Positions 1-50,396 of a stretch of 64,000 bases of DNA are shown here, one piece after another. Below the pieces are notes generated by a model. The model saw only the letters and a program-made list of their open reading frames with translations. It searched no databases and was not told the origin of the DNA. The translations under genes and the position numbers were made by a program. How positions within the stretch are numbered: position 1 is the first letter of the stretch; every line of letters starts with the position of its first letter. Origin of the DNA: Alphaproteobacteria bacterium. GTDB taxonomy: Bacteria > Pseudomonadota > Alphaproteobacteria > Methylaequorales > Methylaequoraceae. The stretch is taken from NCBI GenBank assembly GCA_045563055.1, contig JBJKUR010000008.1:64525-128524 (forward strand), written 5' to 3'.

Positions 1-63
1 AAAACTAATGCACCAACTGGTTTAAAAAGACTATGGAAGCATTTAAAAAGGTTTAAATTCTAA

Positions 64-192: not shown

Positions 193-234
193 TATTATTC
201 TCCAAGTAATATTGTAATTATTAATAAAGAAATT

Positions 235-1773: not shown

Positions 1774-1946
1774 AATAAAGTTTAGAATTGGAAATTAATA
1801 GTTGTCAATATATGCACTTGATAAATCCATTCTATTAGACTAGTCAATAATAACATTATAATTAACATTTTTGTTTTATTTATGATAAATCTTATTAAAT
1901 TCGTCTATTTTTGAAATAAGAAAATATCAAATGCGATAATGGCAAT

Positions 1947-3895: not shown

Positions 3896-4178
3896 AACCA
3901 AGTCAGGTAAAGCACCTATGGTTTACGTAAAGTATAATTCTTGTGAATCTCTTGAAACAACCAGAAAACCTCAATAAATCTACCGTATAATTATTAAATC
4001 TATTTTTGTATATCTAAGATTATGTTATGTTGATAAATATTAACAAAGTCAATGGAATAATTTTTAGGTTTTTTCTAATGAAAAGATTTTTTCAAGCTTT
4101 ACAAATTATCTAAAATTTAATTAATTTGATTATGAAAGTTAAGAAAATATTAAAACGAATATTTAATTAAATAAATTC

Positions 4179-5255: not shown

Positions 5256-5271
5256 AAATTTACAACTATAA

Positions 5272-5952: not shown

Positions 5953-5968
5953 CTCTATATCTTATCAT

Positions 5969-6655: not shown

Positions 6656-6660
6656 GAAAC

Positions 6661-35181: not shown

Positions 35182-35826
35182 TTAATTACGAAGAATGTTA
35201 ATTAATTCTTTCTCTAGATTTTTACTTATTAGACTTACACCTTTGGGGTTTGGATGTTTACCATCTTTTAAATTTAATTTAGGGTTGAGAGCAACACCAT
35301 CTAATAAAAAAGGTAAAAAAGGAAGCTGAAACTTTTTTGCAAGCTCAGGATATATCTTATCAAATTCTTTTTTATATTCTTCTCCAAATGCATTTTGTGA
35401 TATCATACCAGCTAAAAGCACAGCTATCTTTTTTTCTTTTAAAAGTTCTAAAATTCTATTTAAATTTTGTCTAACAAGGTTAGGTTTCACACCCCTTAAC
35501 ATATCATTAGCTCCAAGACATAAAATCAAAATATCAATATCTTTTTTTTCAATTAACCAATTCAACCTATTAAGTCCACCAGTAGTCGTATCACCAGATA
35601 CACTTGCGTTAATTATATTTACATCAAACCCTTTTAGTTTCAGACTGTTCTCTAAAATAGTAGATAAATGAAACTCTTCATCTAAACCATAACCGGACAT
35701 CAGGCTATCACCAAACAATGCAATTTTTTGGTTACAAAAAACTTTTGATGGTATAAAGTTTACCGCAAAAACTAATATAAACAGAAATTTAAGTATGAAA
35801 AATTTATATAAATTAAATAACATCAA
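35182..35826 (-). CDS. tesA: SGNH/GDSL arylesterase-lysophospholipase (TesA-like), secreted
   Basis: Signal peptide, then IALFGDSLMSGYG (block I), ..GANDMLRG.. (block III) and ..DGKHP.. (block V). Confidence 0.8.
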   Translation of the reverse strand: MMLFNLYKFFILKFLFILVFAVNFIPSKVFCNQKIALFGDSLMSGYGLDEEFHLSTILENSLKLKGFDVNIINASVSGDTTTGGLNRLNWLIEKKDIDILILCLGANDMLRGVKPNLVRQNLNRILELLKEKKIAVLLAGMISQNAFGEEYKKEFDKIYPELAKKFQLPFLPFLLDGVALNPKLNLKDGKHPNPKGVSLISKNLEKELINILRN

Positions 35827-36463
35827 TCTTAACTATCACTTAAATGGAAATGAGATCAAGGTTTTAAAAAATATAAATTTTGAAATAAAGAAGAATGAAA
35901 GAGTAGCTATAATAGGAGAAAGTGGTTCGGGAAAAACAAGTCTTTTGATGCTAATGTCTGGTCTAGAAAAACCGACCACTGGTTCAATATTTTTTAATAA
36001 TGAGGATTTTTCTAAAATTAGTGAGAAAAAAAAGACTCAAATAAGAAAAGAAAAAATTGGGTTAATTTTTCAACAATTTTATCTTATACCAAATTATACA
36101 GCCCTTGAAAATGTCATGTTTCCGATGCAAATAAATAAAATTAACAATGAAAAAAAAAAAGCTGATTCAATTCTTTCAGATATTGGTTTAGGTCATCGAA
36201 AAAATAATTTACCCTCTGAATTATCAGGTGGTGAACAACAACGGGTAGCAATTGCTAGAGCAATTTCATTTAGCCCCGAAATCATTTTAGCAGATGAACC
36301 TACTGGTAATTTAGACAGAAAAAATACAGAACTCGTTTCTGATTTGTTATTAGACTACTCAGAAAAAAGAAAAATTAGTTTAATTCTAGTTACTCACAAC
36401 ATGAATTTAGCAAAAAAGTGCAACAGATTTATAAAGTTGTTAGATGGTGGTATCAAAGATTAA
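35795..36463 (+). CDS. ABC transporter ATP-binding protein (YbbA/LolD-like)
   Basis: GESGSGKTSLL (Walker A), LSGGEQQRVAIARA (signature), ILADEPTGNLD (Walker B) and VTHN (H-loop). Confidence 0.9.
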   Translation: MKNLYKLNNINLNYHLNGNEIKVLKNINFEIKKNERVAIIGESGSGKTSLLMLMSGLEKPTTGSIFFNNEDFSKISEKKKTQIRKEKIGLIFQQFYLIPNYTALENVMFPMQINKINNEKKKADSILSDIGLGHRKNNLPSELSGGEQQRVAIARAISFSPEIILADEPTGNLDRKNTELVSDLLLDYSEKRKISLILVTHNMNLAKKCNRFIKLLDGGIKD

Positions 36464-36465
36464 AA

Positions 36466-38955
36466 ATGACTCTTCCAAAATATTTTCAGTTTTTCATAAA
36501 TGAACTTAATATAAATAAATCAAAGATCACAAAGGTTTTTTTTACAATATTTATAAGCTTATTAATTTTTTCTTCTGTAACAATTTTAAAAAATAGCATT
36601 GAAAATGAAATCAAAAATAATTCAAGGGTTCTTCTTGGCGGTGATTTGGAATTATCTGCAAAAAATGAAGATCTAAATTTAAATCTTTTAGACGAACTTA
36701 AAAAAAGTTTTTTTATGACAAAGGTCATTGAATTCACTTCTATTTTGAGAAGTGACAACGATGAGAGTAAAACAATAAGAATAAAGGTAATTGATAATTT
36801 CTACCCACTCATTGGTAAAGCAATTGTTGAGCCTAAAGATTCACTGCGAAAACTGAAAACTAAAACTAATACTATTTTGATTGATAAAACCATAAGAAAT
36901 AATCTTGATTTAAAACTAGGTGAGGAAATTAGAATACAAAATATTTCTTTTGAAGTTGTTGGGTTTATAGACCGTTTGCCCGATATTGGAGGATTTTTTC
37001 TTTTTGGAGATGAAGCCATAATAAATGAATCTAGCTTTAAAAGTTTGGAAATTAATAATCTGGGAAGCTTTATTAGTTTTAAATATAAGCTGATAAAAAA
37101 GAATAATAATTCAAAATTAGCTAACAATATAAGTAAAAATAAAAATTTTGTAGTTAAATATCCTGAAGACATAAGTCAGAATTTAAATAAAGCCATTGCA
37201 AATTTTATTTATTTTCTGTCGATAATCTCGGCATCAGCTATCCTAATCTCTGGTATTGGGTTAAAAAACTCATTATTTTCATTTTTAAGTAATAATCAGC
37301 TTAAAATAGCAATTTATAAGTCATTAGGACTAAGCTCCAAAAGTATAAAAAATTTATATTATTTACAAACGCTCATGATTCTAATTTTTTGCTCTCTTTT
37401 TGCGTATATTTTTAGTTTATTTATAATTTCTCTTTTAGATCATAGTTTTTTAAATTTTCTTAATATTAAATTAAACGTCAATTTCAAAATCTATGAATAC
37501 TTAATAATTCAGTTTTTTAGCATTATAATCTTCTTTATATTTGCTAAACCGGTAATGGATAGTATTGATCAAATTAGAGTAGCTGATTTATTTAGAAACA
37601 GTAGCACACATTTAAATTTAAATTATAGCAGAAAATCTGTTTTAGAAATGATTACATTTTTATTAATCTTTATTTTCTCATTCTGCATTTTAAACGTAAA
37701 ACCTCAGCAAACAGCAATATTTTTTTTCTTTTTTATAATTGTTAGTTGTTTCTATTTCTTTTTATCTAAATTTTACATTTTAATTTTAAATAAAATTAAA
37801 AATGTTCAAAACACATCTATAAAAATAGGAATCAAAAATTTAAAAGCTTTTCGTAGTCTTAATTCAATAATAATAATGACTATGGGATTAGGAATGACGG
37901 TATTATTTTTTTTGGGGTTTTTATCTTCTAGTATTAATAAGGAACTTAATACCTCCATACCGAAAAATGCTCCACATTTTTTTTTCTTAGGCATTCAACA
38001 AAATGAATTAAATCTATTCTCAGAACAAATTCGTGAGATTGATTTTGAAGCAAAACAAGTAATTGTACCGATGATATCCGCAAGAATAGAGACTATAAAT
38101 AATAGAAAACCAAAAGAAATAATTGATGAAGAAAATGAGAGTTATTGGTTTATTAATGGAGACAGAAGAATATCTTGGTTCGAAAAACCGCCGACTAATA
38201 ATCCAATTGTTGAAGGCAAATGGTGGGATTACGACAAGAAAACAAGCCTTCAAGTTTCATTAGATCACAAAGTTGCAAATGATCTGAAACTAAAAATTGG
38301 TGATTCCATCACGTTTAATATTTATGGTAATTCAGTGCCAGGAATTATTACTAGCTTTAGAAAAGTCGATTACAAAGATCTAAATATTAACTTTGCAATT
38401 TTATTTAATCCTAAGTATGCATCAACAATTCCTCACGAATTTATGTCTACTGTAAAATTTAAAGATGATGAGTTAGTAAATTTGAATAATTTATTAAACA
38501 AATTACCTGCCATTTCATATATAAATTTGTCAGAGTACATAAATAAAACAAAAAATTTCTTAAACAAATTATTTGTTATAAGTATTTTAATCTCAAGTGT
38601 AGTTGTCTTAATTGGACTTATAGTAATATCTAATGCTGTGAGTGTAATCGGAAATCTAAAAGTTTATCAAAATCTAGTTTTAAGAATTTTGGGTTTTGAG
38701 AAATCTAATATTATCAAATTAATAATTTTTGAATCCGCGATACTATTTATTCCTATAATTTTCTTCTCGTTAATATTTTCTATTACATTTTCGTACTTTT
38801 TTGTAATTAAATTTTTTGATATTAATTGGTATTTTTCTTTTTCAGTCCCTTTTATTATTTCCAGCTTATTTTTATTAGTTCTATTATTCACATTATTGGT
38901 TTCAAATAAAAAATATATAAACTTTAATGTATACTACCTATTAAGGAATGGATAA
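36466..38955 (+). CDS. FtsX-family ABC permease with duplicated 4-TM modules (YbbP-like)
   Basis: Roughly 830 aa with two FtsX-type TM bundles separated by large extracytoplasmic domains. I use ATG 36466, 3 nt after the ATPase stop. The track ORF starts at 36418 inside the ATPase gene. Confidence 0.8.
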   Translation: MTLPKYFQFFINELNINKSKITKVFFTIFISLLIFSSVTILKNSIENEIKNNSRVLLGGDLELSAKNEDLNLNLLDELKKSFFMTKVIEFTSILRSDNDESKTIRIKVIDNFYPLIGKAIVEPKDSLRKLKTKTNTILIDKTIRNNLDLKLGEEIRIQNISFEVVGFIDRLPDIGGFFLFGDEAIINESSFKSLEINNLGSFISFKYKLIKKNNNSKLANNISKNKNFVVKYPEDISQNLNKAIANFIYFLSIISASAILISGIGLKNSLFSFLSNNQLKIAIYKSLGLSSKSIKNLYYLQTLMILIFCSLFAYIFSLFIISLLDHSFLNFLNIKLNVNFKIYEYLIIQFFSIIIFFIFAKPVMDSIDQIRVADLFRNSSTHLNLNYSRKSVLEMITFLLIFIFSFCILNVKPQQTAIFFFFFIIVSCFYFFLSKFYILILNKIKNVQNTSIKIGIKNLKAFRSLNSIIIMTMGLGMTVLFFLGFLSSSINKELNTSIPKNAPHFFFLGIQQNELNLFSEQIREIDFEAKQVIVPMISARIETINNRKPKEIIDEENESYWFINGDRRISWFEKPPTNNPIVEGKWWDYDKKTSLQVSLDHKVANDLKLKIGDSITFNIYGNSVPGIITSFRKVDYKDLNINFAILFNPKYASTIPHEFMSTVKFKDDELVNLNNLLNKLPAISYINLSEYINKTKNFLNKLFVISILISSVVVLIGLIVISNAVSVIGNLKVYQNLVLRILGFEKSNIIKLIIFESAILFIPIIFFSLIFSITFSYFFVIKFFDINWYFSFSVPFIISSLFLLVLLFTLLVSNKKYINFNVYYLLRNG

Positions 38956-38988
38956 GACTCGAGCTAAATTGTCGACTAATAGAAAATT

Positions 38989-39798
38989 TTACTGACAATT
39001 TTCTATATCTACCTTTGTGCCTAAAAGTTCATCTCCATTGTAATTATTTTTTACACCTTTTATTGTAGAGGCATCTTCGAAATCAAAGCCGGTACTTATT
39101 CTTATGTATTTATCATCGATACACTTTTTATGAGACGGATCGAACCCTACCCAACCTAAATTATTTATAAAAATTTCTACCCATGCGTGAGTGGTATGTT
39201 CACCTGAAACCGTTTCTTCTAATAAAAAACCATTAATATATCTTGCTGGGAGTTGGTTAAGCCTCGCCGCGCTGATAAGGATGTGAGCAAAATCCTGACA
39301 GACACCCTTTTTTTGCTTCAAAGCGTCCTCTGAACTAGTAGATGTTGTCGTTGACCCACTTACGTATTTGATAGAGTTTGAGACTATTAAATTAAGCTTA
39401 TGGGCAAATTCTATTTGGTTTTTATTATTTTTTTTTGCATTTACCGAAATTTTCTCAATGTTTTTGCACGGTTTTGTTAAGTCTGTTTCTCTTAGAAAAC
39501 AAAGCGGATTAACTTTTTCTTTCAAACCTTTTACTAAACCAGATAAATCTTTTGTTTTTAATATTCCTTTTGAAGTAATTTTAAGTTGTCCACGAAAATT
39601 ATTAATAAAAATATTTTGTATTCTATGTCCTAAGGCATCAGTGTGTGACTCTAATATTTTTCCATTACTTGAGAACGTTTTCCATTCTATAATTTCCTGA
39701 TTATCGCATACCGATGGATAAAGTTTTAAACACTGAATAAGCCTGGGCACTGTTGAACTATATTCATAGGTTGTTGAGTGAGTGATTTTAATATTCAT
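38989..39798 (-). CDS. transglutaminase-like cysteine peptidase-fold protein
   Basis: GVCQDFAHILISAARLNQLPARYINGF (Cys), ..HAWVEIF.. (His) and ..GFDPSH.. (Asp) form the transglutaminase-core triad. Confidence 0.85.
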   Translation of the reverse strand: MNIKITHSTTYEYSSTVPRLIQCLKLYPSVCDNQEIIEWKTFSSNGKILESHTDALGHRIQNIFINNFRGQLKITSKGILKTKDLSGLVKGLKEKVNPLCFLRETDLTKPCKNIEKISVNAKKNNKNQIEFAHKLNLIVSNSIKYVSGSTTTSTSSEDALKQKKGVCQDFAHILISAARLNQLPARYINGFLLEETVSGEHTTHAWVEIFINNLGWVGFDPSHKKCIDDKYIRISTGFDFEDASTIKGVKNNYNGDELLGTKVDIENCQ

Positions 39799-40754
39799 GT
39801 TTCTGAACCGAAAAAGTATTTTTGTTCAAATTTTTTATAAACGATATTTATTTCTTCAATAAAGGATTTTAGAAATTCATGCAAACCAATTTCTGTAATT
39901 TTATTAGCATTTAGATTTTTTATTTTTCTATACATTTCTCCCATTTTTTTATTTGAAACAGAAGTTTGTTTATAAAATTTTGACAGCCTTCCTAAATGAT
40001 GATTAATTTTTTCTATTGAGAAAATTAGAGATCTTGGGCAAGTCATATTCAGAATTAAAAAATCTATAATTTTAGTGTATGTAATTTCTTGTCCTCCATA
40101 CGCCCATTTAAATGCCCTGAATGATGAAATTGACCTCAACATCAAACTCCATTGAAAATTGTCAATATCACCTCCGACATAGTTTATGCTTGGAAGTAAA
40201 ATAAAATATTTAACATTAATAATTCTTGCAGTAAAATCTGCTCTTTCAAAATAAGTTCCTAATATTAAAAAATCATAACCATCATTAATTAGTTGGGTGT
40301 TAAGTATTGTGCCTCTAATTAAATTCACTTGTTTTTTTATCCATTCAATAATTTGAGGCAACTCTTTTAAGATATTTTTTGTATCTTTTAAATTTTTATC
40401 TAGTTCATGATAAGAGGAATTAATTGCATTCCAAACCTCTAAAGTAACAGCAGTTCTGACCATTCTTATATTTTCTCTTGCTGTTTTTATACAGTTTTTA
40501 ACTGAAGAAGAGTTTTCTGGATCAAAAAGAAGAAAGAAAATAATTTTCTCTTTAGATATTGTTTTATATTTTTTTAAATATTCATTTTTAATTCCTGAGG
40601 TTTCCAGAATTGATTCCCATTCATTTGTATAACCTCTTTCAGTATTAGGAATCAAAGAAATTCTGTATCCAACCTCTAGGAGTCTAGCTAAAGAATCGGC
40701 TCGTTCTATATATCTTGCCGACCAAAATAAATTTTCTGCAGTTCTACTTAGCAT
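39795..40754 (-). CDS. alpha-E domain protein (DUF403)
   Basis: MLSRTAENLFWSARYIERAD is the characteristic alpha-E N-terminus. Overlaps the transglutaminase gene by 4 nt. Confidence 0.8.
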   Translation of the reverse strand: MLSRTAENLFWSARYIERADSLARLLEVGYRISLIPNTERGYTNEWESILETSGIKNEYLKKYKTISKEKIIFFLLFDPENSSSVKNCIKTARENIRMVRTAVTLEVWNAINSSYHELDKNLKDTKNILKELPQIIEWIKKQVNLIRGTILNTQLINDGYDFLILGTYFERADFTARIINVKYFILLPSINYVGGDIDNFQWSLMLRSISSFRAFKWAYGGQEITYTKIIDFLILNMTCPRSLIFSIEKINHHLGRLSKFYKQTSVSNKKMGEMYRKIKNLNANKITEIGLHEFLKSFIEEINIVYKKFEQKYFFGSET

Positions 40755-40759
40755 ATTAA

Positions 40760-42166
40760 CTATTCATTAAGTATCCATGTATCTTTAACTCCTCCACCTT
40801 GAGAAGAATTAACCACTAATGACCCTTGATTTAAAGCAACCCTTGTTAATCCACCATTAACTAATTTTGTTTTATTTGCTCCAACCAAACAAAATGGTCT
40901 AAGATCAACGTGTCTTGGCGACAATTTTTTTTTATCAAAGACTGGTACCGAGGATAATTCAAGTATGGGTTGGGCTATATAGTTTGCTGGATTTAAAAGG
41001 ATTTTTTTTCGAAAAATTCCAATTTCTTTTTTTGACGATTTACTTCCAATTAATAAACCATAACCACCAGAGCCATGGACTTCTTTAACAACTAATTTAC
41101 TTAAATTATTTAGAACGTATTTTTTTGCACCTTCTTCACAACATCGCCAAGTTCTTACATTTTCTAGAATTGGTTCTTCTCCCAGGTAAAATTTAATTAT
41201 TTCAGGTATGTAAGAATAAATAGCTTTATCGTCAGCGATACCTGAACCTGGAGCGGAACAAATATTTACATTACCAGACTTATATGAATCAAATAAGCCA
41301 GGAATTCCAATAAGTGAGGAACTATCAAAAGTGATTGGATCAATGAATTTATCATCAATTCTTCTGTAAATTATATCAACTTTTTCTGGTCCCCTAGTTG
41401 TTTTCATATATGTTATAGATTCATCAACGAAAAGGTCATTTCCTTGAACTAATTCAACCCCCATAAGGTCAGCTAGAAAACTATGTTCATAATATGCGCT
41501 ATTTAAAGAGCCAGGCGTAAGTATTACTACTTTTGGTTCTTTACCACATTTTTCTGGGGCTAGACTTTTTAGAACATCTAACAAATAATTTGGATAGTTT
41601 TCTACAGTTTCGATTTTTAATTTTTCAAATAATTCTGGAAACATTCTCATCATTATTTCTCTATTTTCAATCATATATGAAACTCCAGATGGAGTTCGAC
41701 AATTGTCCTCAAGAACTTTAAAAAGTTTTTCGTTAATTCTTACAATATCAGATCCAATAATTGGACTGTAAATTCTCTTAGGAACCTTAAAACCAATCAT
41801 TTTAATTTCATATGCAGGGTTTTTATAAATCAAATTTTCTGGTATTAATTTTGCTTTTATAATTTCACCAGAATTATAAATATCATTTAGAAAGGCATTA
41901 ATGGCTAATGCTCTTTGAATAACTCCTTTTTTAATTTTTTTCCATTCTGTTGACGAGATTATTCTTGGAAACATATCAAATGGAATTAAGCGCTCAGTAG
42001 AATCAAAGTTATTATATACAGAAAATGTAATACCTATCTTTTTAAAAAGATTTTCAGCTTCAGTTTTCTTTTTAACAATTACATTTTCGGGTAAAGATTT
42101 AGCCCAATCATATATTTGATTGTAAAATTTTCTTACTTTTGAGTTTTTATAAACTTCGTTGTACAT
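40760..42166 (-). CDS. circularly permuted ATP-grasp protein (type 2; DUF404/DUF407)
   Basis: 468 aa. Conserved three-gene context with alpha-E and transglutaminase genes (the COG2308/COG2307/COG1305 arrangement), plus ..VVKEVHGSGGYGLLIG.. ATP-grasp-like segments. Confidence 0.75.
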   Translation of the reverse strand: MYNEVYKNSKVRKFYNQIYDWAKSLPENVIVKKKTEAENLFKKIGITFSVYNNFDSTERLIPFDMFPRIISSTEWKKIKKGVIQRALAINAFLNDIYNSGEIIKAKLIPENLIYKNPAYEIKMIGFKVPKRIYSPIIGSDIVRINEKLFKVLEDNCRTPSGVSYMIENREIMMRMFPELFEKLKIETVENYPNYLLDVLKSLAPEKCGKEPKVVILTPGSLNSAYYEHSFLADLMGVELVQGNDLFVDESITYMKTTRGPEKVDIIYRRIDDKFIDPITFDSSSLIGIPGLFDSYKSGNVNICSAPGSGIADDKAIYSYIPEIIKFYLGEEPILENVRTWRCCEEGAKKYVLNNLSKLVVKEVHGSGGYGLLIGSKSSKKEIGIFRKKILLNPANYIAQPILELSSVPVFDKKKLSPRHVDLRPFCLVGANKTKLVNGGLTRVALNQGSLVVNSSQGGGVKDTWILNE

Positions 42167-42207
42167 CTTCTTTCACTTATTATCGGAGTGGAAGGAGACA
42201 GATGGAT

Positions 42208-42253
42208 GCGTTCCTTCGGTTTCAAACCTACTTCCGACCATAATGGTTGAACG
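42208..42253 (-). promoter_or_regulatory. candidate glutamine riboswitch (glnA RNA motif-like aptamer) in the 5' leader of the ATP-grasp operon
   Basis: The minus strand reads CGTTCA-ACC-ATTAT-GGT-CGGAAGTAGG-TTTGAAA-CCGAAGGAACGC. It has a P1 CGTTC/GAACG, a small ACC/GGT hairpin, and AGUA opposite GAA (loop-E signature). The blocks match my recollection of the glnA-motif consensus. It lies 41 nt upstream of the ATG. Confidence 0.5.
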
Positions 42254-42313
42254 TTTATTTGAGATTATAACTAATCATTTTCCAAAGCAAGAATTATTTG
42301 GTTTGTGTTATTA

Positions 42314-42366
42314 CTAGTCGGACTCAAACGGACATGAACCGAAGTTTAACGGATTTTGAATCAGTG
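42314..42366 (-). repeat. decayed partial copy (3' half) of tRNA-Leu(CAA), direct repeat B
   Basis: ctagtcggactcaaacggacatgaaccgaagtttaacggattttgaatcagtg versus tRNA positions 44220-44272: about 48 of 52 nt identical, same orientation. The acceptor end and the 5' half are absent. Confidence 0.75.
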
Positions 42367-42442
42367 ATATTTTTCCTGAAAGACACTCTCATTCAGGGTC
42401 TCAATTTACTCTCACACTTTTTTTAGAATATCTTTAGGAACT

Positions 42443-42468
42443 AAATTAAGTCAGAAATGACTTAATTT
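42443..42468 (-). terminator. perfect 11-bp inverted repeat hairpin at the end of the lipoprotein gene
   Basis: aaattaagtca-gaaa-tgacttaattt overlaps the stop codon by 2 nt. T-rich on both sides. The stem is AT-rich, so terminator function is uncertain. Confidence 0.35.
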
Positions 42469-42796
42469 ATTTTTCGCAACCTTTCACATCCATTGCTTTC
42501 CTTACAGCCTCTTTTTCACCTTTTACAATTGCAAGTTCTGAAGCTTCAACACCATCACCAGTTCCAAATCCAAGAAGCAAAGCTTGCACTAAGCTAGACT
42601 TTCTTCGCCCTTCTTGAGCAATTGTAAGTTGGTCTTCTCTTCTTGCTAAAGCATTAATTTCAACTGCCAATCTTTCACACTCATAATTTTCATATTTCAT
42701 TCCTGAAGTATATGAGCCTGTAATCTGAGCTGCTGGTGTAGGCATATTACATGAGACAAGTAAAAGTAAATTAAATAAAATAAGGACAGACTTCAT
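42467..42796 (-). CDS. small lipoprotein, unknown function
   Basis: MKSVLILFNLLLLVSC: signal peptide plus a lipobox (L-V-S-C). 109 aa. Confidence 0.7.
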   Translation of the reverse strand: MKSVLILFNLLLLVSCNMPTPAAQITGSYTSGMKYENYECERLAVEINALARREDQLTIAQEGRRKSSLVQALLLGFGTGDGVEASELAIVKGEKEAVRKAMDVKGCEK

Positions 42797-42845
42797 CTCA
42801 ATATCTAATCATAAAAATTCATTCAGGAAAAGAAAATTAATTTTA

Positions 42846-42908
42846 TGGTACCCTAGTCCGACTAGAACGGACATGAACCGAAGTTCAACGGATTATGAAT
42901 CAGTTGCG
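42846..42908 (-). repeat. decayed partial copy (3' half incl. CCA end) of tRNA-Leu(CAA), direct repeat A
   Basis: tggtaccc-tagtccgactagaacggacatgaaccgaagttcaacggattatgaatcagttgcg versus 44213-44276: about 59 of 63 nt identical with one 1-nt gap, same orientation. Confidence 0.8.
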
Positions 42909-43104
42909 TTTGATCGTAAGTTATTAATTTAAATACATAAAGTTTTTTCTATCAAACTCTCCTATCAAACTTTTTTTAAAATTTCTAAGGATATCTCTAT
43001 AATTATATTCTCATTAATATTTTCCATTATATTTTAATACCTTTTATGAATAAGTTTTGTTTAATATCTATAAAATTTGAAATATCTATTTGATTAATAA
43101 AAAA

Positions 43105-44082
43105 TTAAGTAATCTCTCTTGAGAGTTCATTCGCACTTAAGAATGCACCTTCCACTCTGCTATTAACTAACCAATCACCGCAAACTGCAATTTTATTTTC
43201 ATGATCAATAAAATAATTTTCTTTTGGAGAACATTCGGCTTCGACATACCTCCATTGATGAATTTTTATCATAGATGATTTGAATAAATCATAATTTATT
43301 AAGTTACTAGATATATTTAACAAATGTTTTAAAACTTTATCATTTGGAGTATTGATATTTCTAGTAGCGTACTCGTATGAAGAGTTAATTAGCAAACAAT
43401 GATTTTTCATTCTAAACGGTTTTGAATTATTTAGGGCTAACCATGCAATATCTTTGTTTTCAATAAATGCTGCATCAAAATCTAATTGTAATGATTTATC
43501 CATTCCAACCATCAAAGAATAGCACCCTTTCATTTTAATTTTTTTTACATTGGGATAAAAGGAAGTTTTATCTGAAATTATATCAAGAGATTGCTCAGCT
43601 GGAAGACTTAATATAACCCAATCATACATTCCGTGAGGTTTTTTATTTTGGTCATAAAGTTCCCATTTATCATTTTTTCGTTTAATTCTTTCAATTTTTG
43701 TATCTAAAATCAAATTACAATCTCTAGAGATGTATTTTAAAATGGAATCCATATTTGGAACTCCAACATAAAATTTATCAGCATTTTTGATTATTTTAAT
43801 TTCTCTTAAATGATTTCCTTCAAAATATGCAAGTTTAAAACTCCAAGGTTGAATAATTTCTTGTGTAAACAATTGTGAGAAAAATTTTTTACATTCAGTT
43901 GTTTTAATTTTGAAAAATTGAGCTCCATGATCAAAAATAAAAGGAGATTCTTTTCTGGTTGACATTCTTCCACCTACTTCTCGTGATTTTTCAAAGATTT
44001 TTACATTGAATTTATCTTTCATTATGCAGGCAAAAGTGATTCCTGCCAAACCAGCACCTATCACTGCTATTTTTTTATTCAT
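43105..44082 (-). CDS. NAD/FAD-dependent oxidoreductase (renalase-like, COG3380-type)
   Basis: KIAVIGAGLAGITFACIM (GxGxxG) followed by ..EKSREVGGRMSTR.. typical of this amine-oxidase-fold family. Confidence 0.7.
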   Translation of the reverse strand: MNKKIAVIGAGLAGITFACIMKDKFNVKIFEKSREVGGRMSTRKESPFIFDHGAQFFKIKTTECKKFFSQLFTQEIIQPWSFKLAYFEGNHLREIKIIKNADKFYVGVPNMDSILKYISRDCNLILDTKIERIKRKNDKWELYDQNKKPHGMYDWVILSLPAEQSLDIISDKTSFYPNVKKIKMKGCYSLMVGMDKSLQLDFDAAFIENKDIAWLALNNSKPFRMKNHCLLINSSYEYATRNINTPNDKVLKHLLNISSNLINYDLFKSSMIKIHQWRYVEAECSPKENYFIDHENKIAVCGDWLVNSRVEGAFLSANELSREIT

Positions 44083-44212
44083 TTTCTAATTTATCCTGTA
44101 AAAAACCATACCAATCGGAATGTCGGAGTGTACAAATCTCCTCAGTCATCCCATTCATATTATCACATTACATGTCACTAAGTTTTTAAAATTTTATAAG
44201 ATATTCCGTAAA

Positions 44213-44299
44213 TGGTACCCCTAGTCCGACTCGAACGGACATGAACCGAAGTTCAACGGATTTTGAATCCGTCGCGTCTACCAATTCCGCCATAGGGGC
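44213..44299 (-). tRNA. tRNA-Leu (anticodon CAA), type II with long variable arm, CCA encoded
   Basis: The minus strand reads GCCCCTATGGCGGAATTGGTAGACGCGACGGATTCAAAATCCGTTGAACTTCGGTTCATGTCCGTTCGAGTCGGACTAGGGGTACCA. It has an anticodon stem ACGGA/TCCGT with loop TTCAAAA, a T-arm GTCCG-TTCGAGT-CGGAC, and an acceptor GCCCCTA/TAGGGGT (G1-U72 wobble). Confidence 0.9.
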
Positions 44300-44392: not shown

Positions 44393-45112
44393 TTAAATAT
44401 TTGTAATGACATACTCTTTAGCTTTAAAAAAGGAAGTCTGATAATACTGAGAAATTAAATCGTACCCATTTTTATGAAGTATTTTATAAATAGGTTTATG
44501 GAAAATTTCTTTAGTATTCTTAACATGTATCTCTACTGTTATAATCTTAGGTCTAAAATTTTTAAAGCTCACTCCCTTTAGGACCTCAACCTCATGACCT
44601 TCGACATCAATATTCAATAATTCAATATTTTTTGGAATTCCATATTCTTTCACAACATGATTCAGTGTTCTTTTCTTTATTTTTCTAACAGAAAATTTTT
44701 GATTAATTTTTTTTGACCATTTTTCAGCCCAGCTTTTTTCAAGTGTATTCAATCCTGATCCCGATGAAAAAATATAAGTATTAACAGTTCCTCTATTGGA
44801 AGAAATTGCACAATTAATCGACTGATCTTTTGGTCTTAATAATTTGAATAATTTTATGTTGTGCTTATCAATATCAATATTGATACCTGTCCAACCCCTC
44901 TTATACAAATTATATGTTAAAGAACCGTTTACTGGATGAAGGGCACCTACATCAACGAAAAAACCATTTTTATGTTTAAAAATTTTATTAATTAGAACAT
45001 CCTCACCCATAGCTCCGAATGTTTTGAAATACATTAATCTGTACTTCAAATATCGATAAAGGTGGTAAACAAGTAAATTTTTAATGTATTTTTTTTTAAA
45101 ATTTTTTATCAT
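44393..45112 (-). CDS. FkbM-family methyltransferase
   Basis: ..GFFVDVGALHPVNGSLTYNLYKRGWTGINID.. and ..LLNIDVEGHEVEVLKG.. are the Methyltransf_21 hallmarks. Confidence 0.75.
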   Translation of the reverse strand: MIKNFKKKYIKNLLVYHLYRYLKYRLMYFKTFGAMGEDVLINKIFKHKNGFFVDVGALHPVNGSLTYNLYKRGWTGINIDIDKHNIKLFKLLRPKDQSINCAISSNRGTVNTYIFSSGSGLNTLEKSWAEKWSKKINQKFSVRKIKKRTLNHVVKEYGIPKNIELLNIDVEGHEVEVLKGVSFKNFRPKIITVEIHVKNTKEIFHKPIYKILHKNGYDLISQYYQTSFFKAKEYVITNI

Positions 45113-45169
45113 ATATAATCTTAAATTATAATTTAATTATGGCTTACAAAATAGTATATGATTTTTTAA

Positions 45170-45694
45170 ATGTTTAATAAATTTTTAAATATTAGAAAAG
45201 ATAGAAATGAAAAGTTCTACATTAGAAACTACTTTTATTTCATCCTTATAATATCTTTTTTAATTATTATTTCAGCTTATATAATAGAGATATTTTTCAA
45301 ACATCCACCATGTAAATTATGCGAGTATCAACGTATTCCATATTTTATATTAATAATTTTGAGCCCTATTGGAATATTGAAACCAGAGAGAGTCGCGGTG
45401 CTCTATTTATCTATTTTACTTCTTTTTTGTGTTTCATTGATTGCTGGATTTCATTCTCTTGTTGAGAGAAAGTTAATTTTATTCGATACAGGATGTACAT
45501 CAATAAATAATAATTTTGAAAATATTGAAGAGCTAAGAAATTTTTTAGAAAAGGTTCCTATTGTAAAATGTGATGAGATATTATTTTCAATTCTTGGGTT
45601 GTCTTTAGCCAATTTAAACTTGATGATTTCTATTTTTTTAATATTATTAGGAATGTTTATTGTAAGAAAACATGGTCAAAAAATTCAGAAATAA
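45170..45694 (+). CDS. dsbB: disulfide bond formation protein B family
   Basis: 4 TM helices, the PPCKLCEYQRIPYF motif (CxxC followed by QR) and a second Cys pair (..GCTS...KC..) in the second loop. Confidence 0.7.
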   Translation: MFNKFLNIRKDRNEKFYIRNYFYFILIISFLIIISAYIIEIFFKHPPCKLCEYQRIPYFILIILSPIGILKPERVAVLYLSILLLFCVSLIAGFHSLVERKLILFDTGCTSINNNFENIEELRNFLEKVPIVKCDEILFSILGLSLANLNLMISIFLILLGMFIVRKHGQKIQK

Positions 45695-46196
45695 AATAGA
45701 TGAGATAATTAGAGTGAATCATGCAGGTGAGTTCGGAGCGCAAAGAATTTACTCTGGTCAGATAAAATTTAGTAAAGATAAAAAACTTAAAGATAAACTA
45801 AAAAAAATTGTACAAGAAGAATACGAACATTACGATTATTTTAATAATGCTATGTTAGAAAAAAGAACAAGACCAACTCTTATGAGTCCCTTGTGGTATT
45901 ATGGAGGATATGCTGCAGGTGCTATTACATCTTTAATGGGAGAAAGGTATGTTCTTGCCTGTACCGAAGCTGTTGAGGAAGTGATAGTAGAGCATTATGA
46001 AGAGCAAATACAGTTTCTTAAAAAAAACGGCCTAGAGAAAAAACTAATGAACAAGATAAAAAGGTTTAAAGCTGATGAAGATGCTCATAGAAGTTATGCT
46101 GAGGATTCAAACTTAAATAAAAAGGGTGTAAAAGCCTTTAAAGATATTACGAAGTCAATTACTAGATTGGCAATAAAGATATCAAAAAAAATCTAG
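45672..46196 (+). CDS. coq7: demethoxyubiquinone hydroxylase (COQ7 family di-iron carboxylate protein)
   Basis: RVNHAGEFGAQRIYSGQ, ..EEYEHYDYF.. and ..ADEDAHRS.. match the repeated E-x-x-H di-iron motifs. Confidence 0.85.
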   Translation: MVKKFRNKIDEIIRVNHAGEFGAQRIYSGQIKFSKDKKLKDKLKKIVQEEYEHYDYFNNAMLEKRTRPTLMSPLWYYGGYAAGAITSLMGERYVLACTEAVEEVIVEHYEEQIQFLKKNGLEKKLMNKIKRFKADEDAHRSYAEDSNLNKKGVKAFKDITKSITRLAIKISKKI

Positions 46197-46204
46197 ATTA
46201 GAGA

Positions 46205-46765
46205 TTAAGGTTCTAACTCTGAATCCCAATATAAAAAATCATTCCAGCTTTTATGAAGAAAATTTGGAGGAAACATCCTTCCAATTTCTTTTAACTGAAA
46301 ATTATTAGGTATGCTAGGAAGAACTTTCAAATTGATACCAATTTTTTTTAATGATTTACTTCCTTTCATTGTGTTACATTTTCTACAAGATGTAACTACG
46401 TTCTCCCAAATTGTTTTTCCACCACGAGCTTTCGGAATAACGTGATCAAAGGTTAAATCCTCAACTTTGAAGTTTTCATGACAATATTGACACGTAAATC
46501 TGTCTCTTAAAAAAACATTAAATCTCGTAAAGGCGGCTTTCTCTGGAAGAGGAATATAATCTTTCAATGAGACAACACTTGGAAGTTTAAATTCTGTAGA
46601 TGGAGACCTGACGACTTGGTTGTATTCAGATACAACGTTGACTCTTTGTAAAAAAACAGCTTTTAATGCGTCTTTCCACGACCAAGTTGAAAGAGGGAAA
46701 TAACTCAGAGGTTGATAATCAGCGTTTAGAACTAAAGCTGGACAGTTATTTGGAGATAAAGACAT
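46205..46765 (-). CDS. HNH endonuclease-domain protein
   Basis: CQYCHENF..LTFDHVIPKARGGKTIWENVVTSCRKCNTMKG (C-x-x-C...H...N...C-x-x-C-N). Confidence 0.8.
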   Translation of the reverse strand: MSLSPNNCPALVLNADYQPLSYFPLSTWSWKDALKAVFLQRVNVVSEYNQVVRSPSTEFKLPSVVSLKDYIPLPEKAAFTRFNVFLRDRFTCQYCHENFKVEDLTFDHVIPKARGGKTIWENVVTSCRKCNTMKGSKSLKKIGINLKVLPSIPNNFQLKEIGRMFPPNFLHKSWNDFLYWDSELEP

Positions 46766-46795
46766 ATATAATTATATACTATCTATTAATTTAAT

Positions 46796-47464
46796 TTAAA
46801 TCTTAAATTTATTCTTAATTAAATTTAATCCAAAATCCAGGCCAATATTATCGATTCCATGTCCAAGACCGTTTTGAATATGGTATGTAACATCGAAACC
46901 AAGAGATTTTAACTTTTCGGTGGATTTAAGAGAATAATTTGAATCAATAAGTTCATCTTCTTTTCCATGATAGATGCCAACTGGAAAAGTTGAATTAATA
47001 TTTTTATTAAATAATTTATCATCAAATAAAAGACCTGAGTATGCTAATAGACCAGCAATGTTTTTAGATAGCTTTGGAAGATGATATAACGACATCATTG
47101 CTCCTTGAGAAAATCCAAAAAAAACTATTTGGTTGTTTTCTAAGGAAAATTTTTTTTTAAATTCATCTAGATAATCCATAAGATAAGTGCCTGCTTTTTT
47201 TAATCCCTCCCCAATTTTATCATACGAGGATAAATCAAACCACATGAAAGATTCGACCTCTTCAACACCAGGGTTACCGTCAAATTTACACTTGAAAGGG
47301 GCATTTGGTGCGGCAAATAATGTATTTTTTAAATCTTTCTGCCAAAGTTGACCGATATTTAGAAGATCATTGCCATTTGCTCCATAACCATGGAGAAAAA
47401 TAACTGCACTTTCAATTTTGCGACCTTCTTCTGGCTTAATATACTGCCAATTGGTTAGTGTCAA
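46796..47464 (-). CDS. alpha/beta hydrolase, phospholipase/carboxylesterase family
   Basis: VIFLHGYGANGNDLL, nucleophile elbow GFSQGAMMS and ..HGKEDELI...GHGI... Confidence 0.75.
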   Translation of the reverse strand: MTLTNWQYIKPEEGRKIESAVIFLHGYGANGNDLLNIGQLWQKDLKNTLFAAPNAPFKCKFDGNPGVEEVESFMWFDLSSYDKIGEGLKKAGTYLMDYLDEFKKKFSLENNQIVFFGFSQGAMMSLYHLPKLSKNIAGLLAYSGLLFDDKLFNKNINSTFPVGIYHGKEDELIDSNYSLKSTEKLKSLGFDVTYHIQNGLGHGIDNIGLDFGLNLIKNKFKI

Positions 47465-47564
47465 ATTAGCCTCACAATGTTTTTATAATTGAGTAAATAT
47501 TATGTTTTTTTGGTTTGTCCAAATAAATTATTAAAATTAATTTTTATTCAATTAATTTAAAACT

Positions 47565-48116
47565 TCAAATTTTTTTTTTATTAAAGAGAGAATCAATTTC
47601 TATTTTGAATGATTTTGGAATAGAGTCTTCCATTTTTAGTATTAAAAAATCTATTATTGGAATTATACAATTGGCTTTCAAAAGTTTATTAGTTAATATC
47701 TCATGAATGTTGCAGATATCAAAAGAAATGAAATTATCAACCTCTCCGTCTTGATTTTCAAACTTCATATCAGTTGTCTTTTCAAGCTGATAAATGAAAA
47801 TTATTGCTGAATTAAATTTTTTATCTTCATTATGCATATAATGGACAGTCTTACTTTTTTTTGCTTGGCACATAAATTTTTTTGCTAAACCAGCTTCTTC
47901 AAATGCTTCTTTATATAAGTTTTCGATAATTGAAATTTTAGAAGGTTGTCCTCCTGCAACAAGGTTGTCATAAAGTCCAGGAAAATTTCTAACCTTTTTT
48001 GAACGTACTGCAAGATGAATTACTGTAGAATTTTTATATTTGCTCCATACGTTGCAATGAATACCATATGCTGGTAGACCAAATAGTGATAGTAAATCTC
48101 TTTCAATCTCATACAC
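47565..48116 (-). CDS. NUDIX-family hydrolase (coordinates from first canonical start, GTG 48116; the frame stays open up to 48413)
   Basis: Nudix-box-like GGQPSKISIIENLYKEAFEEAGL. See the finding on the start-less N-terminal extension. Confidence 0.6.
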   Translation of the reverse strand: MYEIERDLLSLFGLPAYGIHCNVWSKYKNSTVIHLAVRSKKVRNFPGLYDNLVAGGQPSKISIIENLYKEAFEEAGLAKKFMCQAKKSKTVHYMHNEDKKFNSAIIFIYQLEKTTDMKFENQDGEVDNFISFDICNIHEILTNKLLKANCIIPIIDFLILKMEDSIPKSFKIEIDSLFNKKKI

Positions 48117-48413
48117 TTTTTCTTTGCAAAATAATTGTTTGTGATCAAATTCAAGCTTTGGTTTAAGTGATTGATGATCAAATACTGGACAGATTTCTTT
48201 TGTTAAATTTGTCGGTTTAATTAGACTTGATAAATTTACTAAATCTTCAATTCTTATTAAAGTTTTCTTACAGTTAGATTTATAATGATCCTGAAGATTT
48301 GTTCTGTGTATCCATCCTACAGCTTTTTTTTTAAAGTAAATTGGGAAATAATCGGAGAGATCGTATGAATTTATTTGTCTTAAAAGGTCAATTGCTAAAT
48401 TTAAAGTTTTTTT

Positions 48414-50396
48414 TTAAGCATATTCTTCTTTAATAATAGAGGTAATTTGTTGCATTATTTGTTCAATTCTAAAATCTTTTGGTGTAAAAACCTTCTTTAC
48501 ACCAAAAGATTTTAACTTCTTTTCATCTGTTGGCGGTATAATTCCACCAACCACAACAGGGATTTTAGAGTAATGATTTTTTTTCAAAAGATTCATTATG
48601 ATTTTTACAAGATGTACGTGAGAACCTGAGAGTATAGATAAACCAATTATATGCACGCCCTCTTCAATTGCAGCCACAACTAGTTGCTCTGGGGTAGATC
48701 TAATTCCGTCATAAACTACTTCAAGACCAATGTCTCTTGCTCTAACAGCAATTTGCTCGGCTCCATTTGAGTGTCCATCTAGTCCAGGTTTTCCAACAAG
48801 CATTTTAGGTCGTCTTTTTAATTTTGCTGTAATCTGTTCAATCTCATTTTGAATATTTGAGATTTCTTTATTATTTGTCTTATTTTTTAAAATATTTGAG
48901 GAAACAATTCCTGTAGGTGCTCTGTATTCTCCAAATACATCTCTCATAACGTTTGACCACTCTCCTGTCGTAACTCCTTCGTGTGCACATTTTACAGAAA
49001 TTTCCATAATATTTTTACCTGCTGATGCATCATGCCTTAGTTCCTTTAAACATGATTGAATTTTTTTATTATTTCTTCTAGCTTTCCATCTTAGCACATT
49101 ATCGATTTGCTTTTTTTCAGCTTTATCATCTACCTTCATAAAACCGCCGTCTTTTTCATTAACTAATGGTGAATGCTCTCCCTCTTCAAAACAATTAACG
49201 CCGACAACCATTTGATCTCCATTCTCAATATTTTTTTGTCTATTAGTTTGAGATTCAACTAATCTACTTTTTAAATAACCGTTTTCAATTGCTGAAATCA
49301 AACCTCCAATCTTATCAATTTTTTTAAGTTCACTATTAGCTGATTTTTTCAAATATCTGATCTTATCTTTCAAAACTCTAGATCCTTGAAAAATGTCAGA
49401 AAATTCTAATAAGTCTGTTTCATAAGCCATAATTTGTTGAAGGCGAAGACTCCACTGTTGATCCCATGGTCTTGGAAGACCAAGAGCTTCGTTCCAGGCA
49501 GGAAGTTGTACTGCTCGAGCTCTTGAATTTTTGGCAATTATGACTGGTAGCATTTGGATTAAGATTCTATAAACATTGTTTTCAGGTTGTAGCTCCGTCA
49601 AACCAAGCGAGTTTACTTGCATCCCATACCTAAAGCGGCGAAATTTTGGATCTTTAATCTTAAACCTTTTTATACAAATTTCCTCCCATAGCTCTGTAAA
49701 AGAGGCCATTTTTGCAGTTTCTGTAACGAAACGCATACCAGAGTTAACAAAAAAACTGATTCTTCCCACTATTTTTTCAAATAAAGATTCTTCAATTTTT
49801 TCTGAGTTATAAAGATATTCTAGTACGCCGATAGCTGTGGCAAGTGCAAACGATAGTTCTTGTTCGGGTGTAGCTCCTGCTTCTTGAAGATGATAAGAAC
49901 AAATATTGATAGGGTTCCATTTTGGTATTTCATTCGTAGTATATTTTATTACGTCTGTAGTAAGTTTTAGACTGGGTTCGGGTGGAAAAATGTAAGTGCC
50001 TCTAGATAAGTATTCTTTTGTAATATCATTTTGGGTGGTTCCTGATAAAAGGCTTTTCTTAACTCCTTGTTTTTCAGCTGTAGCAACATAAAGAGCCAAT
50101 AACCAGGGTGCAGGAGCGTTGATAGTCATTGAAGTATTCATTTTGTCTAGTGGTATGTTTCTAAACAATGTCTCCATATTACCTATATGACTTATTGGAA
50201 CACCAACCTTTCCAACTTCACCTTTAGAAAGAATGTGATCTGAGTCATATCCGGTTTGGGTTGGCAAATCAAAAGCTACAGATAACCCTGTCTGACCTTT
50301 CTTTAAATTTTCTCTATACAAATTATTAGAAGCCTCAGCTGAGGAATGCCCAGCATAAGTTCTAATCATCCATGGTTTATCTTTTTCTTTGTTCAT
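48414..50396 (-). CDS. ecm: ethylmalonyl-CoA mutase (MeaA/Ecm-type, single-chain adenosylcobalamin-dependent acyl-CoA mutase)
   Basis: PWMIRTYAGHSSAEASNNLYRENLKKGQTGLSVAFDLPTQTGYDSDH is the RTYAGHS/DLPTQTGYD variant typical of MeaA, not MCM. The fused C-terminal B12 domain carries GLDGHSNG (DxHxxG). 660 aa. Confidence 0.8.
   Translation of the reverse strand: MNKEKDKPWMIRTYAGHSSAEASNNLYRENLKKGQTGLSVAFDLPTQTGYDSDHILSKGEVGKVGVPISHIGNMETLFRNIPLDKMNTSMTINAPAPWLLALYVATAEKQGVKKSLLSGTTQNDITKEYLSRGTYIFPPEPSLKLTTDVIKYTTNEIPKWNPINICSYHLQEAGATPEQELSFALATAIGVLEYLYNSEKIEESLFEKIVGRISFFVNSGMRFVTETAKMASFTELWEEICIKRFKIKDPKFRRFRYGMQVNSLGLTELQPENNVYRILIQMLPVIIAKNSRARAVQLPAWNEALGLPRPWDQQWSLRLQQIMAYETDLLEFSDIFQGSRVLKDKIRYLKKSANSELKKIDKIGGLISAIENGYLKSRLVESQTNRQKNIENGDQMVVGVNCFEEGEHSPLVNEKDGGFMKVDDKAEKKQIDNVLRWKARRNNKKIQSCLKELRHDASAGKNIMEISVKCAHEGVTTGEWSNVMRDVFGEYRAPTGIVSSNILKNKTNNKEISNIQNEIEQITAKLKRRPKMLVGKPGLDGHSNGAEQIAVRARDIGLEVVYDGIRSTPEQLVVAAIEEGVHIIGLSILSGSHVHLVKIIMNLLKKNHYSKIPVVVGGIIPPTDEKKLKSFGVKKVFTPKDFRIEQIMQQITSIIKEEYA

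Follow-up and report, generated by a model that had tools for sequence, protein, structure and literature searches.

We propose that the tRNA-Leu(CAA) gene in a 64,000-nucleotide (nt) stretch of an alphaproteobacterial genome (contig JBJKUR010000008.1 of GenBank assembly GCA_045563055.1, positions 64,525 to 128,524 of the forward strand; hereafter the window, with coordinates counted from its first letter) anchors a stack of small, exchangeable gene cassettes, and that the locus is best explained as the tRNA-proximal end of an additive genomic island. Additive tRNA islands with cassettes have long been known, and this locus belongs to that kind, here in the TMED127 lineage. Behind the tRNA lie two partial copies of its 3' half, each of which ends a repeat of about 160 nt that looks, from its sequence, like the attR site of an arm-binding tyrosine integrase. 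We lean towards the view that helper-dependent site-specific recombination built this array and feeds it still.

The genome that carries the window (G000) amounts to 1.43 Mb in 18 contigs, is 89.6% complete and 4.1% contaminated, and has a guanine-plus-cytosine content of about 28%. MED657, MED715 and AG-892-F10 have been assigned to the same TMED127 or 'Methylaequorales' group, for whose methylotrophs of about 1.5 Mb the ethylmalonyl-CoA pathway has been predicted (10.1101/2025.06.11.659106). The locus was compared with 42 genomes of the TMED127 family (26 at first, then 42) and with 49 metagenome contigs drawn from one scan of Joint Genome Institute (JGI) contigs for a pattern specific to the partial copies. 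G numbers denote genomes and L numbers loci or contigs, AG-901-J22 being L056 and MED657 being L050. The genomes are mostly single-cell or metagenome assemblies, often broken at these very repeats, and loci from relatives are not independent of one another. The tRNA and the repeats behind it are arranged as follows.

44213-44299, minus strand: intact tRNA-Leu(CAA), found by ARAGORN; putative attL side of the array.

44213-44269, minus strand: tRNA positions 31-87, the identity block common to all partial copies.

42846-42901, minus strand: core of copy A, tRNA positions 31-87 with a 1-nt deletion (one G) and the CCA end kept.

42314-42362, minus strand: core of copy B, tRNA positions 31-79, without the acceptor end.

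42845-43009, minus strand: unit A, the whole repeat that ends in copy A (nhmmer unit model, E 1.8e-42).

42314-42443, minus strand: unit B, the whole repeat that ends in copy B (nhmmer).

42902-43009, minus strand: P-type arm of unit A, with a conserved block ATAGAGATATCCTTAGAAATTTT, an A-run, two GTTTGATAG repeats and the tRNA-like AACGCAACT.

42363-42443, minus strand: P-type arm of unit B, with one GTGTGAGAG repeat at 42409-42417.

The intact gene, the single tRNA gene that ARAGORN reports in the window, is 100% identical in 14 other genomes of the bacterial family, which span six genera. Both copies lie downstream of its 3' end and in its orientation (repeat search and MAFFT), and each begins next to the anticodon loop, at tRNA position 31; when the tRNA is compared with the window by BLAST, 42851-42901 in copy A matches positions 31-81 at 96% identity (E 4e-19) and 42314-42362 in copy B matches positions 31-79 at 94% (E 1.5e-15). 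An original prediction, made from the sequence, had described a tRNA-Leu with two decayed direct copies, and ARAGORN, BLAST and MAFFT bear this out to within a few bases. The substitution that it saw in both copies is also real: GAATCAGT stands where the gene has GAATCCGT, which is G30->T on the tRNA strand, and it is joined by a second shared change, G27->A, both being found again in most partial copies across the whole bacterial family. What the prediction had missed is a longer repeat, about 160 nt in all, of which either copy forms only the 3' end. Copy B is without its acceptor end because a deletion took its last bases together with a leader of about 170 nt belonging to the next module; in the alignment with G002, about 170 nt between the CCA end and the start of the ATP-grasp module (described below) are missing from the window.

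In a BLAST of the island against other loci, homology extends about 100 nt upstream of the tRNA-derived part, over 43000-42910 at copy A and 42470-42367 at copy B. The general picture of this arm comes from an alignment of 44 partial copies and a profile search of 79 loci, which gave 172 matches, 21 of them full tRNAs and 151 partial copies. A conserved arm accompanies 93 of the 131 assessable partial copies and is lacking in the other 38, a further 20 copies being truncated where their contigs stop. Almost all of the 151 have an identity block that opens at tRNA position 31, with G27A and G30T marking the element-derived side. Read in tRNA orientation, the arm has a conserved block (consensus ..CATTCATAGGGATATTCTTAGAGATTTTG), followed by an A-run, by between one and three direct repeats with a period of 13 nt, by a spacer of about 30 nt, and by ACCAAACGCAACT, a tRNA-like stretch with A27 and T30 that stands just before the identity block. 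The direct repeats occur as GTGTGATAG, GTTTGATAG, GTTTGATAC, CATTGATAC, CATTGACAC and GTGTGAGAG, and tandem copies in one arm are usually the same or a near variant. Written as [GC][AT][TG][TG]GA[TCG]A[CG], the motif is present in 70 of 82 arms, at least twice in 39 of the 82, and it starts almost only at -56 and/or -69 nt from position 31; its background is 0.3 per kb per strand, and its tandem form occurs once in the 1.43 Mb of the window's own genome, in unit A. There the two GTTTGATAG repeats are phased by 13 nt (42962-42970 and 42949-42957), AACGCAACT at the end of the arm carries the diagnostic A27 and T30, and the whole arm is homologous to arms at many other loci (78-89%). The arm of unit B is homologous to arms in L036 and L049, and a hairpin at 42439-42472, directly after the stop codon of a lipoprotein gene, lies ahead of its GTGTGAGAG. 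RNAalifold found no compensatory pairs in the arm and no conserved helix (covariation term -0.07), an Rfam scan gave no match on the units, and the conserved features are direct repeats, not inverted repeats or helices. Conservation therefore concerns sequence and repeat phase, not fold, which is what one would expect of protein-binding DNA.

Matches to the last 60 nt of tRNA-Leu(CAA) occur in 38 of the 42 family genomes, up to nine per genome. Across these genomes and more than 49 metagenome contigs the same tRNA carries from zero to about eight partial copies, with differing cargo in shuffled order. At 21 loci, clustering of open reading frames (ORFs) found a conserved frame around the tRNA, inside which the stack consists of units of 0.5-10 kb split by partial tRNA copies, nearly all beginning at position 28-32. 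Thus G007 and G014 have cassettes in the order glutaminase, a three-gene set with a transporter of the major facilitator superfamily (MFS), and FkbM methyltransferase; metagenome contig L081 has the same three as MFS, FkbM, glutaminase; G012 has FkbM and MFS, and L103 has FkbM and glutaminase. Many further cargo sets, again bracketed by partial copies, are found in the 49 metagenome contigs. Altogether there are more than 100 different cargo sets, all with the same end structure, their genes lying in both orientations, and the left ends of the cassettes start directly after CCA in every upstream context. The smallest arrays hold one cassette (G057, L111); G054, a candidate for a truly empty attB, was ruled out on the ground that its contig ends 280 nt after the tRNA. 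The comparison of relatives that the original prediction had proposed thus found no single fixed arrangement, with alternative cargo and an empty-site state (L149 and L153, below), and its description of the tRNA as an insertion hotspot is supported by the variable copy number, cargo and order behind an identical tRNA.

The cassettes are far more alike between genomes than the genes around them: from one genus to another they show 89-99% identity, against 41-86% for the flanking core genes. A 237-aa cassette protein (c29) is 98.7% identical between AG-901-J22 and MED657, against 43% for core genes, and 99% identical in G057, against 44-87%; for the PlcP-like/glycosyltransferase cassette the figures are 88-92% for the protein and 50% for core genes. 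Since they are discrete units with conserved ends and this degree of identity across genera, the cassettes are not eroded debris, and of the two descriptions offered by the original prediction, eroded remnants or very small cargo modules, the second fits better. The window itself holds three modules.

42846-44212, minus strand: cassette 1, the newest, with a gene for a renalase-like oxidoreductase dependent on flavin adenine dinucleotide (43105-44082) and its own attR-type end.

42363-42845, minus strand: cassette 2, with a gene for a 109-aa lipoprotein (42467-42796), the hairpin at 42439-42472 and the arm of unit B.

38983-42310, minus strand: module 3, the oldest, with a glutamine riboswitch (42205-42255) and genes for a circularly permuted ATP-grasp protein (40760-42166), an alpha-E protein (39795-40754) and a transglutaminase-like protein (38989-39798).

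Each interval between copies contains one ORF (43105-44082 and 42467-42796), in agreement with the single genes, renalase-like and lipoprotein, that had been predicted there. The renalase-like protein matches bacterial renalase over its full length (PDB 4ZCC, E 3.5e-38; Pfam NAD_binding_8). Cassette 1 recurs between partial copies in AG-901-J22 (91.7% over 1,428 nt) and in MED657 (91.6% over 1,253 nt), where the renalase proteins are 93.5% and 89.2% identical to that of the window, against 44-83% and 41-50% for flanking core proteins. What follows it differs from place to place: the lipoprotein cassette in the window, a 247-aa gene in AG-901-J22, a 569-aa gene in L104 and a methyltransferase in MED657. 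The 109-aa lipoprotein has 148 homologues in a large protein collection, including proteins 60-74% identical from other alpha- and betaproteobacteria, and is on that account a real and widespread small-lipoprotein family.

The lipoprotein cassette is a discrete unit. At 87-94% nucleotide identity it adjoins the intact tRNA in L149 (a 99-kb JGI contig), L153 and L151, and lies behind other units in L150, L152 and L155; elsewhere it is followed by MBOAT genes or by a hydrolase/SDR set, not by the ATP-grasp operon. At L149 and L153, where the tRNA abuts the lipoprotein cassette, the renalase cassette is absent. These loci serve as empty-site comparators, and therefore represent the state before insertion of the renalase cassette. 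The small contig L151 (ENA k141_584184, 1741 nt) reads tRNA, lipoprotein cassette, the last 240 nt or so of FkbM with the intergenic region and a second full tRNA, and then the renalase cassette; either unequal recombination has produced a tandem duplication here or the assembly is chimeric.

The ATP-grasp/riboswitch operon is a third exchanged module, since it is nearly identical in G002 and G056 inside a diverged frame: it has 93.1% nucleotide identity to G002, where it lies between the tRNA and a partial copy, and it is 95.5% identical to G056, a member of another genus, whose frame proteins are 48-86% identical. The glutamine riboswitch (42205-42255, minus strand; Rfam RF01739, 59.7 bits against a gathering score of 35) sits in the leader of the operon and moves with it as one module (38983-42310) in three genomes. 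For annotation, this means that the renalase gene, the lipoprotein gene and the ATP-grasp operon are recently exchanged accessory genes, not core genes.

In the reading that we favour, tRNA-Leu(CAA) would supply, with its 3' half between anticodon loop and CCA, the att core of a lambda/P4-type tyrosine integrase with an arm-binding domain, which would cross over in the anticodon loop, and the P arm of about 100 nt would offer it, in the phased 13-nt repeats, putative arm-type binding sites. Each integration would restore the tRNA and push the older 3' half outward along with the P arm of the incoming element. At least two such events would have taken place in the window, the first placing the lipoprotein cassette ahead of the ATP-grasp module and the second the renalase cassette ahead of the lipoprotein cassette. 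The cassettes, which encode no recombinase, would most likely be passengers of a visiting helper that bears the integrase; the helper may excise by way of the distal attR of a passenger, enter another cell, integrate there and afterwards depart without the passenger, a cis-mobilisation like that of the cis-mobilisable elements (CIMEs) and like the one proposed for the tycheposon islands considered below. Alternatively, cassettes might exist as circles that are acted on in trans. Further shuffling would probably proceed by homologous recombination between the 57-nt cores. The original prediction had likewise read the pattern as site-specific integration into the 3' half of the tRNA; a start at the anticodon loop is indeed that of class-A att sites, while the mechanism itself is something that we infer, no integrase for this site having been found.

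The notion of passengers draws on the two sides of the cassettes. On the side that would be P', the motif occurs in 18 of 154 downstream (cassette-start) regions, so that most cassette starts lack it; of 22 motifs in the 160 nt that come first downstream, 20 fall at +70..+89, all directly oriented. At +60..+95 such motifs are found behind 6 of 25 intact tRNAs and behind 7 of 129 partial copies (Fisher p 0.008, with loci that are not independent), an enrichment that fits newest arrivals next to the tRNA and passengers without a P' arm. No integrase fragment lies beside any of the 93 arms. Given that almost all distal ends have a P arm, that few proximal ends have a P' arm (more often those beside the tRNA), and that the arms lack neighbouring integrase fragments, the cassettes look like passengers of a helper and not like autonomous elements or their wrecks.

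Several results weigh against helper-dependent recombination. The absence of an integrase, noted in the original prediction, was borne out by domain searches, which found none in the interval between the tRNA and its copies, and it extends to the relatives: no PF00589 gene lies in any tRNA-Leu array of the 42 family genomes (tyrosine-recombinase profiles only), and phmmer searches with 13 family integrases brought up no tyrosine recombinase among the 49 metagenome contigs (serine recombinases and transposases not profile-searched). G021, which is 99% complete, has partial copies and only XerC/D. The matching attP for which the original prediction had suggested a search did not turn up on any viral contig or phage record, as core or as arm: exact scans of IMG/VR with two versions of the core gave 0 matches, unit A matched none of 50,697 phage records by BLAST, and scans of IMG/VR for the tandem repeat motif gave 1 and 6 matches, about what a rough estimate of chance would give, none of them with a unit by nhmmer. 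The ATP-grasp module, moreover, has the same boundaries in three contexts, and in two of these they are not att cores; other recombination routes must therefore act too. Finally, a perfect repeat of 57 nt suffices for RecA-dependent insertion of the Campbell type, so that an integrase is not strictly required for present-day shuffling, and homologous recombination between the 57-nt cores can yield the same products at a low rate. It is this route, together with the non-att exchange of the ATP-grasp module, that keeps us at a leaning towards helper-dependent recombination and that gives the next explanation its weight.

In that explanation, which we consider doubtful and nevertheless worth taking seriously, the units are dead remnants of integrase-bearing elements, tycheposon- or prophage-like, that decayed in place, and their only present means of spread and shuffling is homologous recombination between conserved cores and arms once foreign DNA has been taken up. 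In its favour are the lack of an integrase in every array and the non-att boundaries of the ATP-grasp module; the 57-nt cores and the units of about 160 nt are ample for RecA, and the SAR11 literature favours homologous recombination for island fragments of one or two genes (PMC11796062). Harder to reconcile with decay are the 93 arms kept, with phased repeats at a fixed distance, in genomes that have very little non-coding DNA, as are the lack of any integrase fragment beside an arm, the same end structure on more than 100 cargo sets, and insertions that fall exactly at the core and next to the tRNA.

The array may also be a tRNA-anchored analogue of an integron, in which free-standing cassettes of one to three genes with a site of about 160 nt are moved by a recombinase unlinked to the array and either encoded by the host or borne by a virus or satellite; we put this forward tentatively, as rather unlikely. 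If true, a streamlined ocean lineage with almost no mobile-element genes would have here one of its main means of exchanging genes. As in integrons, the modules are small, mostly of one gene and promoter-poor, carry their own site at one end, are stacked at one locus and are reshuffled between strains. Unlike in integrons, the anchor is a tRNA gene and the genes lie in both orientations; no IntI or attI was seen next to the array, and the site, with its arms of direct repeats, is not an imperfect palindrome of the attC type.

Two further explanations fare much worse. That the units are a structured non-coding RNA or small-RNA repeat trailing tRNA genes, like the tRNA-linked repeats of E. coli, is very improbable: they do lie behind a tRNA gene and close with a copy of its 3' portion, yet this reading of the arm was rejected on the RNAalifold and Rfam results, the conserved features are direct repeats where helices would be needed, and the units bracket 0.5-10 kb of protein-coding cargo that differs between genomes. 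An old local duplication of the tRNA 3' half, inherited vertically with no horizontal input, would account for the repeats themselves and nothing beyond, and is refuted by the content, number and order of units that differ between close relatives, by cassettes far more alike than core genes across genera, and by the state in which the tRNA adjoins the lipoprotein cassette without the renalase cassette.

To return to helper-dependent recombination, integrases of a suitable kind do exist in the family. By PF00589, each genome (26, then 42 searched) has two Xer-like genes, and a few extra integrases turned up across the set; on contigs with arrays, the only tyrosine recombinases are Xer-like genes about 42-56 kb away that are part of the core synteny. 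The extra integrases sit at tRNA-Ser(GGA), at tRNA-Thr(TGT), or without a tRNA-Leu unit nearby. A class of 411-417 aa beside tRNA-Ser(GGA) has a core of 16 nt, with TTACCCCTA recurring at a 13-nt interval in each of the two arms, and a class of 451 aa beside tRNA-Thr(TGT) has GTAACACAGAG in tandem. A third class, of 389 aa, is 92-96% identical across three genera and adjoins a displaced 3' half of tRNA-Thr(TGT) that starts at the anticodon loop; in L060 (G003:C2) it occupies 6140-7502, it is found also in L059, L061, L069 and L070, and it is flanked on either side by tandem repeats and neighbours a gene for a PD-(D/E)XK nuclease. The one integrase that was scanned for domains belongs to this class and carries Arm-DNA-bind_3, as in P4-type integrases. 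The elements at tRNA-Ser and tRNA-Thr are thus built like the tRNA-Leu units, with tandem repeats of 10-13 nt in arms beside a displaced tRNA 3' fragment; the tandem tRNA-Leu repeat motif, in a form narrower than [GC][AT][TG][TG]GA[TCG]A[CG], is absent beside these integrases. As a separate observation, the 389-aa integrase element is spreading recently in the same bacterial family.

Among known systems, the closest are additive tRNA islands (Williams 2002; Islander, PMC4383910). Islands of class-A tyrosine integrases that target tRNA genes have an attP of about 250 bp and a displaced 3' fragment, form tandem arrays, and need not each have an integrase of their own (PMC4383910). The locus shares with them an intact tRNA gene with displaced 3' fragments in direct orientation, a block from the anticodon loop to the 3' end that restores the gene (the tRNA is 100% conserved), an attP-sized flank (about 250 bp) with arm repeats, and tandem accretion with the newest element next to the tRNA; the arms, with phased 13-nt repeats at -56 and -69, would be attP-derived. 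It differs from the Islander definition, which requires an integrase per island, in having none in more than 100 units, most of them with one to three genes: no integrase gene was found inside the island in the 42 genomes (PF00589) or the 49 contigs (phmmer).

Growth of tRNA-proximal islands has been described for the tycheposons of Prochlorococcus, for which seven tRNA targets are listed (10.1101/2020.12.28.424599). Common to both are a streamlined marine bacterium, islands that grow at a tRNA and vary between strains, units split by partial tRNAs, the idea of passengers left behind, and nutrient-stress cargo, represented in the relatives here by alkaline phosphatase, OlsB/OlsA-like and PlcP-like genes and glutaminase. 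In contrast, the lineage here is TMED127, and the seven targets listed for Prochlorococcus do not include tRNA-Leu(CAA); neither the tycheposon recombinase nor replication or packaging hallmark genes were seen by Pfam in the window cassettes and 20 recurrent cassette proteins, which yielded cargo domains only.

The CIMEs known from work on ICESt1/3 of Streptococcus thermophilus are reportedly cis-mobilisable, integrase-less, att-flanked elements that accrete with an integrative element. The cassettes resemble them as att-bounded units without recombination or transfer genes, in tandem at one site and presumably dependent on a helper integrase; they differ in being much smaller and far more numerous and diverse. 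A cognate helper for this att site was sought without success in the genomes and metagenome contigs, in IMG/VR and in the phage records, although a lack of matches there does not prove that none exists.

Recurring partial tRNA repeats that mark cassettes in genomes almost without mobile-element genes are also known from other streamlined bacteria. Repeats of the last 20 nt of tRNA-Lys occur in fGI-2 of Methylophilaceae (PMC10872708), in the SAR11 islands GI-20/30/50/58 '>90% partial repeats' mark cassette insertion with almost no integrases (PMC11796062), and in Alteromonas additive islands a conserved tRNA is the target of gene cassettes (PMC4119200). In fGI-2 and the SAR11 islands, which concern other taxa and tRNAs, only the short repeat is described, without a conserved arm or phased repeats. 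As far as these papers go, the arm with phased repeats is a new detail, and the strict absence of an integrase across more than 100 units is an added one.

How streamlined ocean bacteria such as Prochlorococcus, SAR11 and OM43 maintain large flexible gene pools with almost no mobile-element genes is an open question, and the locus offers a sharply defined case of it in the TMED127 methylotrophs, with a 57-nt core, an arm of phased repeats, more than 100 distinct cassettes, and states before and after insertion. In relatives, the cassettes include phosphorus-stress and nitrogen genes: arrays at L038, L044, L050 and L036 are rich in nutrient-stress cargo, with a PhoA-type alkaline phosphatase, OlsB/OlsA-like and PlcP-like lipid-remodelling genes, a metallophosphoesterase together with a GT4 glycosyltransferase fused to diacylglycerol kinase, and a glutaminase with a cyclic-nucleotide (cNMP)-binding domain. 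Further cargo comprises a T5orf172 protein, a FliB-like lysine methylase that recurs in many arrays, and proteins that resemble DNA methyltransferases, judged by BLAST similarity only. With its specificity, the att unit could serve to look for the missing integrase or helper in long-read metagenomes, viromes and vesicle DNA, and to count cassette turnover in natural populations.

The frame in which the window's array is set consists of two blocks.

44393-50396: upstream frame, with genes for an FkbM methyltransferase, DsbB, COQ7, an HNH endonuclease, a carboxylesterase, a NUDIX-like ORF and a mutase.

35182-38955: usual distal frame, with a YbbP-like ABC permease (36418-38955), its ATPase (35795-36463) and a TesA-like esterase (35182-35826).

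The upstream frame is syntenic in G002, G003, G011, G012, G016, G056, G057, AG-901-J22 and metagenome contig L111, often with FkbM present, and in L084, L111 and L056 the distal block in its turn is permuted or has partial copies on either side. Within the upstream frame, the HNH endonuclease (186 aa, 46205-46765, minus strand) is 75-87% identical across relatives, against 44-67% for its neighbours, and its HNH region has a weak NCBIfam match to the HNH domains of IscB/Cas9d. A second copy of the distal frame genes is held by another contig of the same assembly, G000:C17 (L055), of which 1-7044 of 7.7 kb are 99.7% identical to G056:C28 from another genus; we considered this contig as a strain variant of the tRNA-Leu locus and rejected the idea, since that identity to another genus makes a mis-binned contig more likely.

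A second locus with tRNA-Leu-type units lies at G000:C6:107164-112480 (L054 4165-9481), where a cassette with an alkaline phosphatase, OlsB-like and OlsA-like acyltransferases and a PycTM-domain protein is set between a full unit of arm and core and a weak partial copy, with no tRNA at the locus. The same cassette sits in the tRNA-Leu array in G004, and similar units, 85% identical, occupy this second locus in four other genomes of the genus. Finally, at G000:C9:78806-80483, tRNA-His(GTG) is followed 1.6 kb downstream by a partial copy of itself (positions 31-77, 94%), and a 31-nt tRNA-His fragment is also found in contig C17; this is a second hotspot of the anticodon-loop type, without a repeat arm of the tRNA-Leu type.

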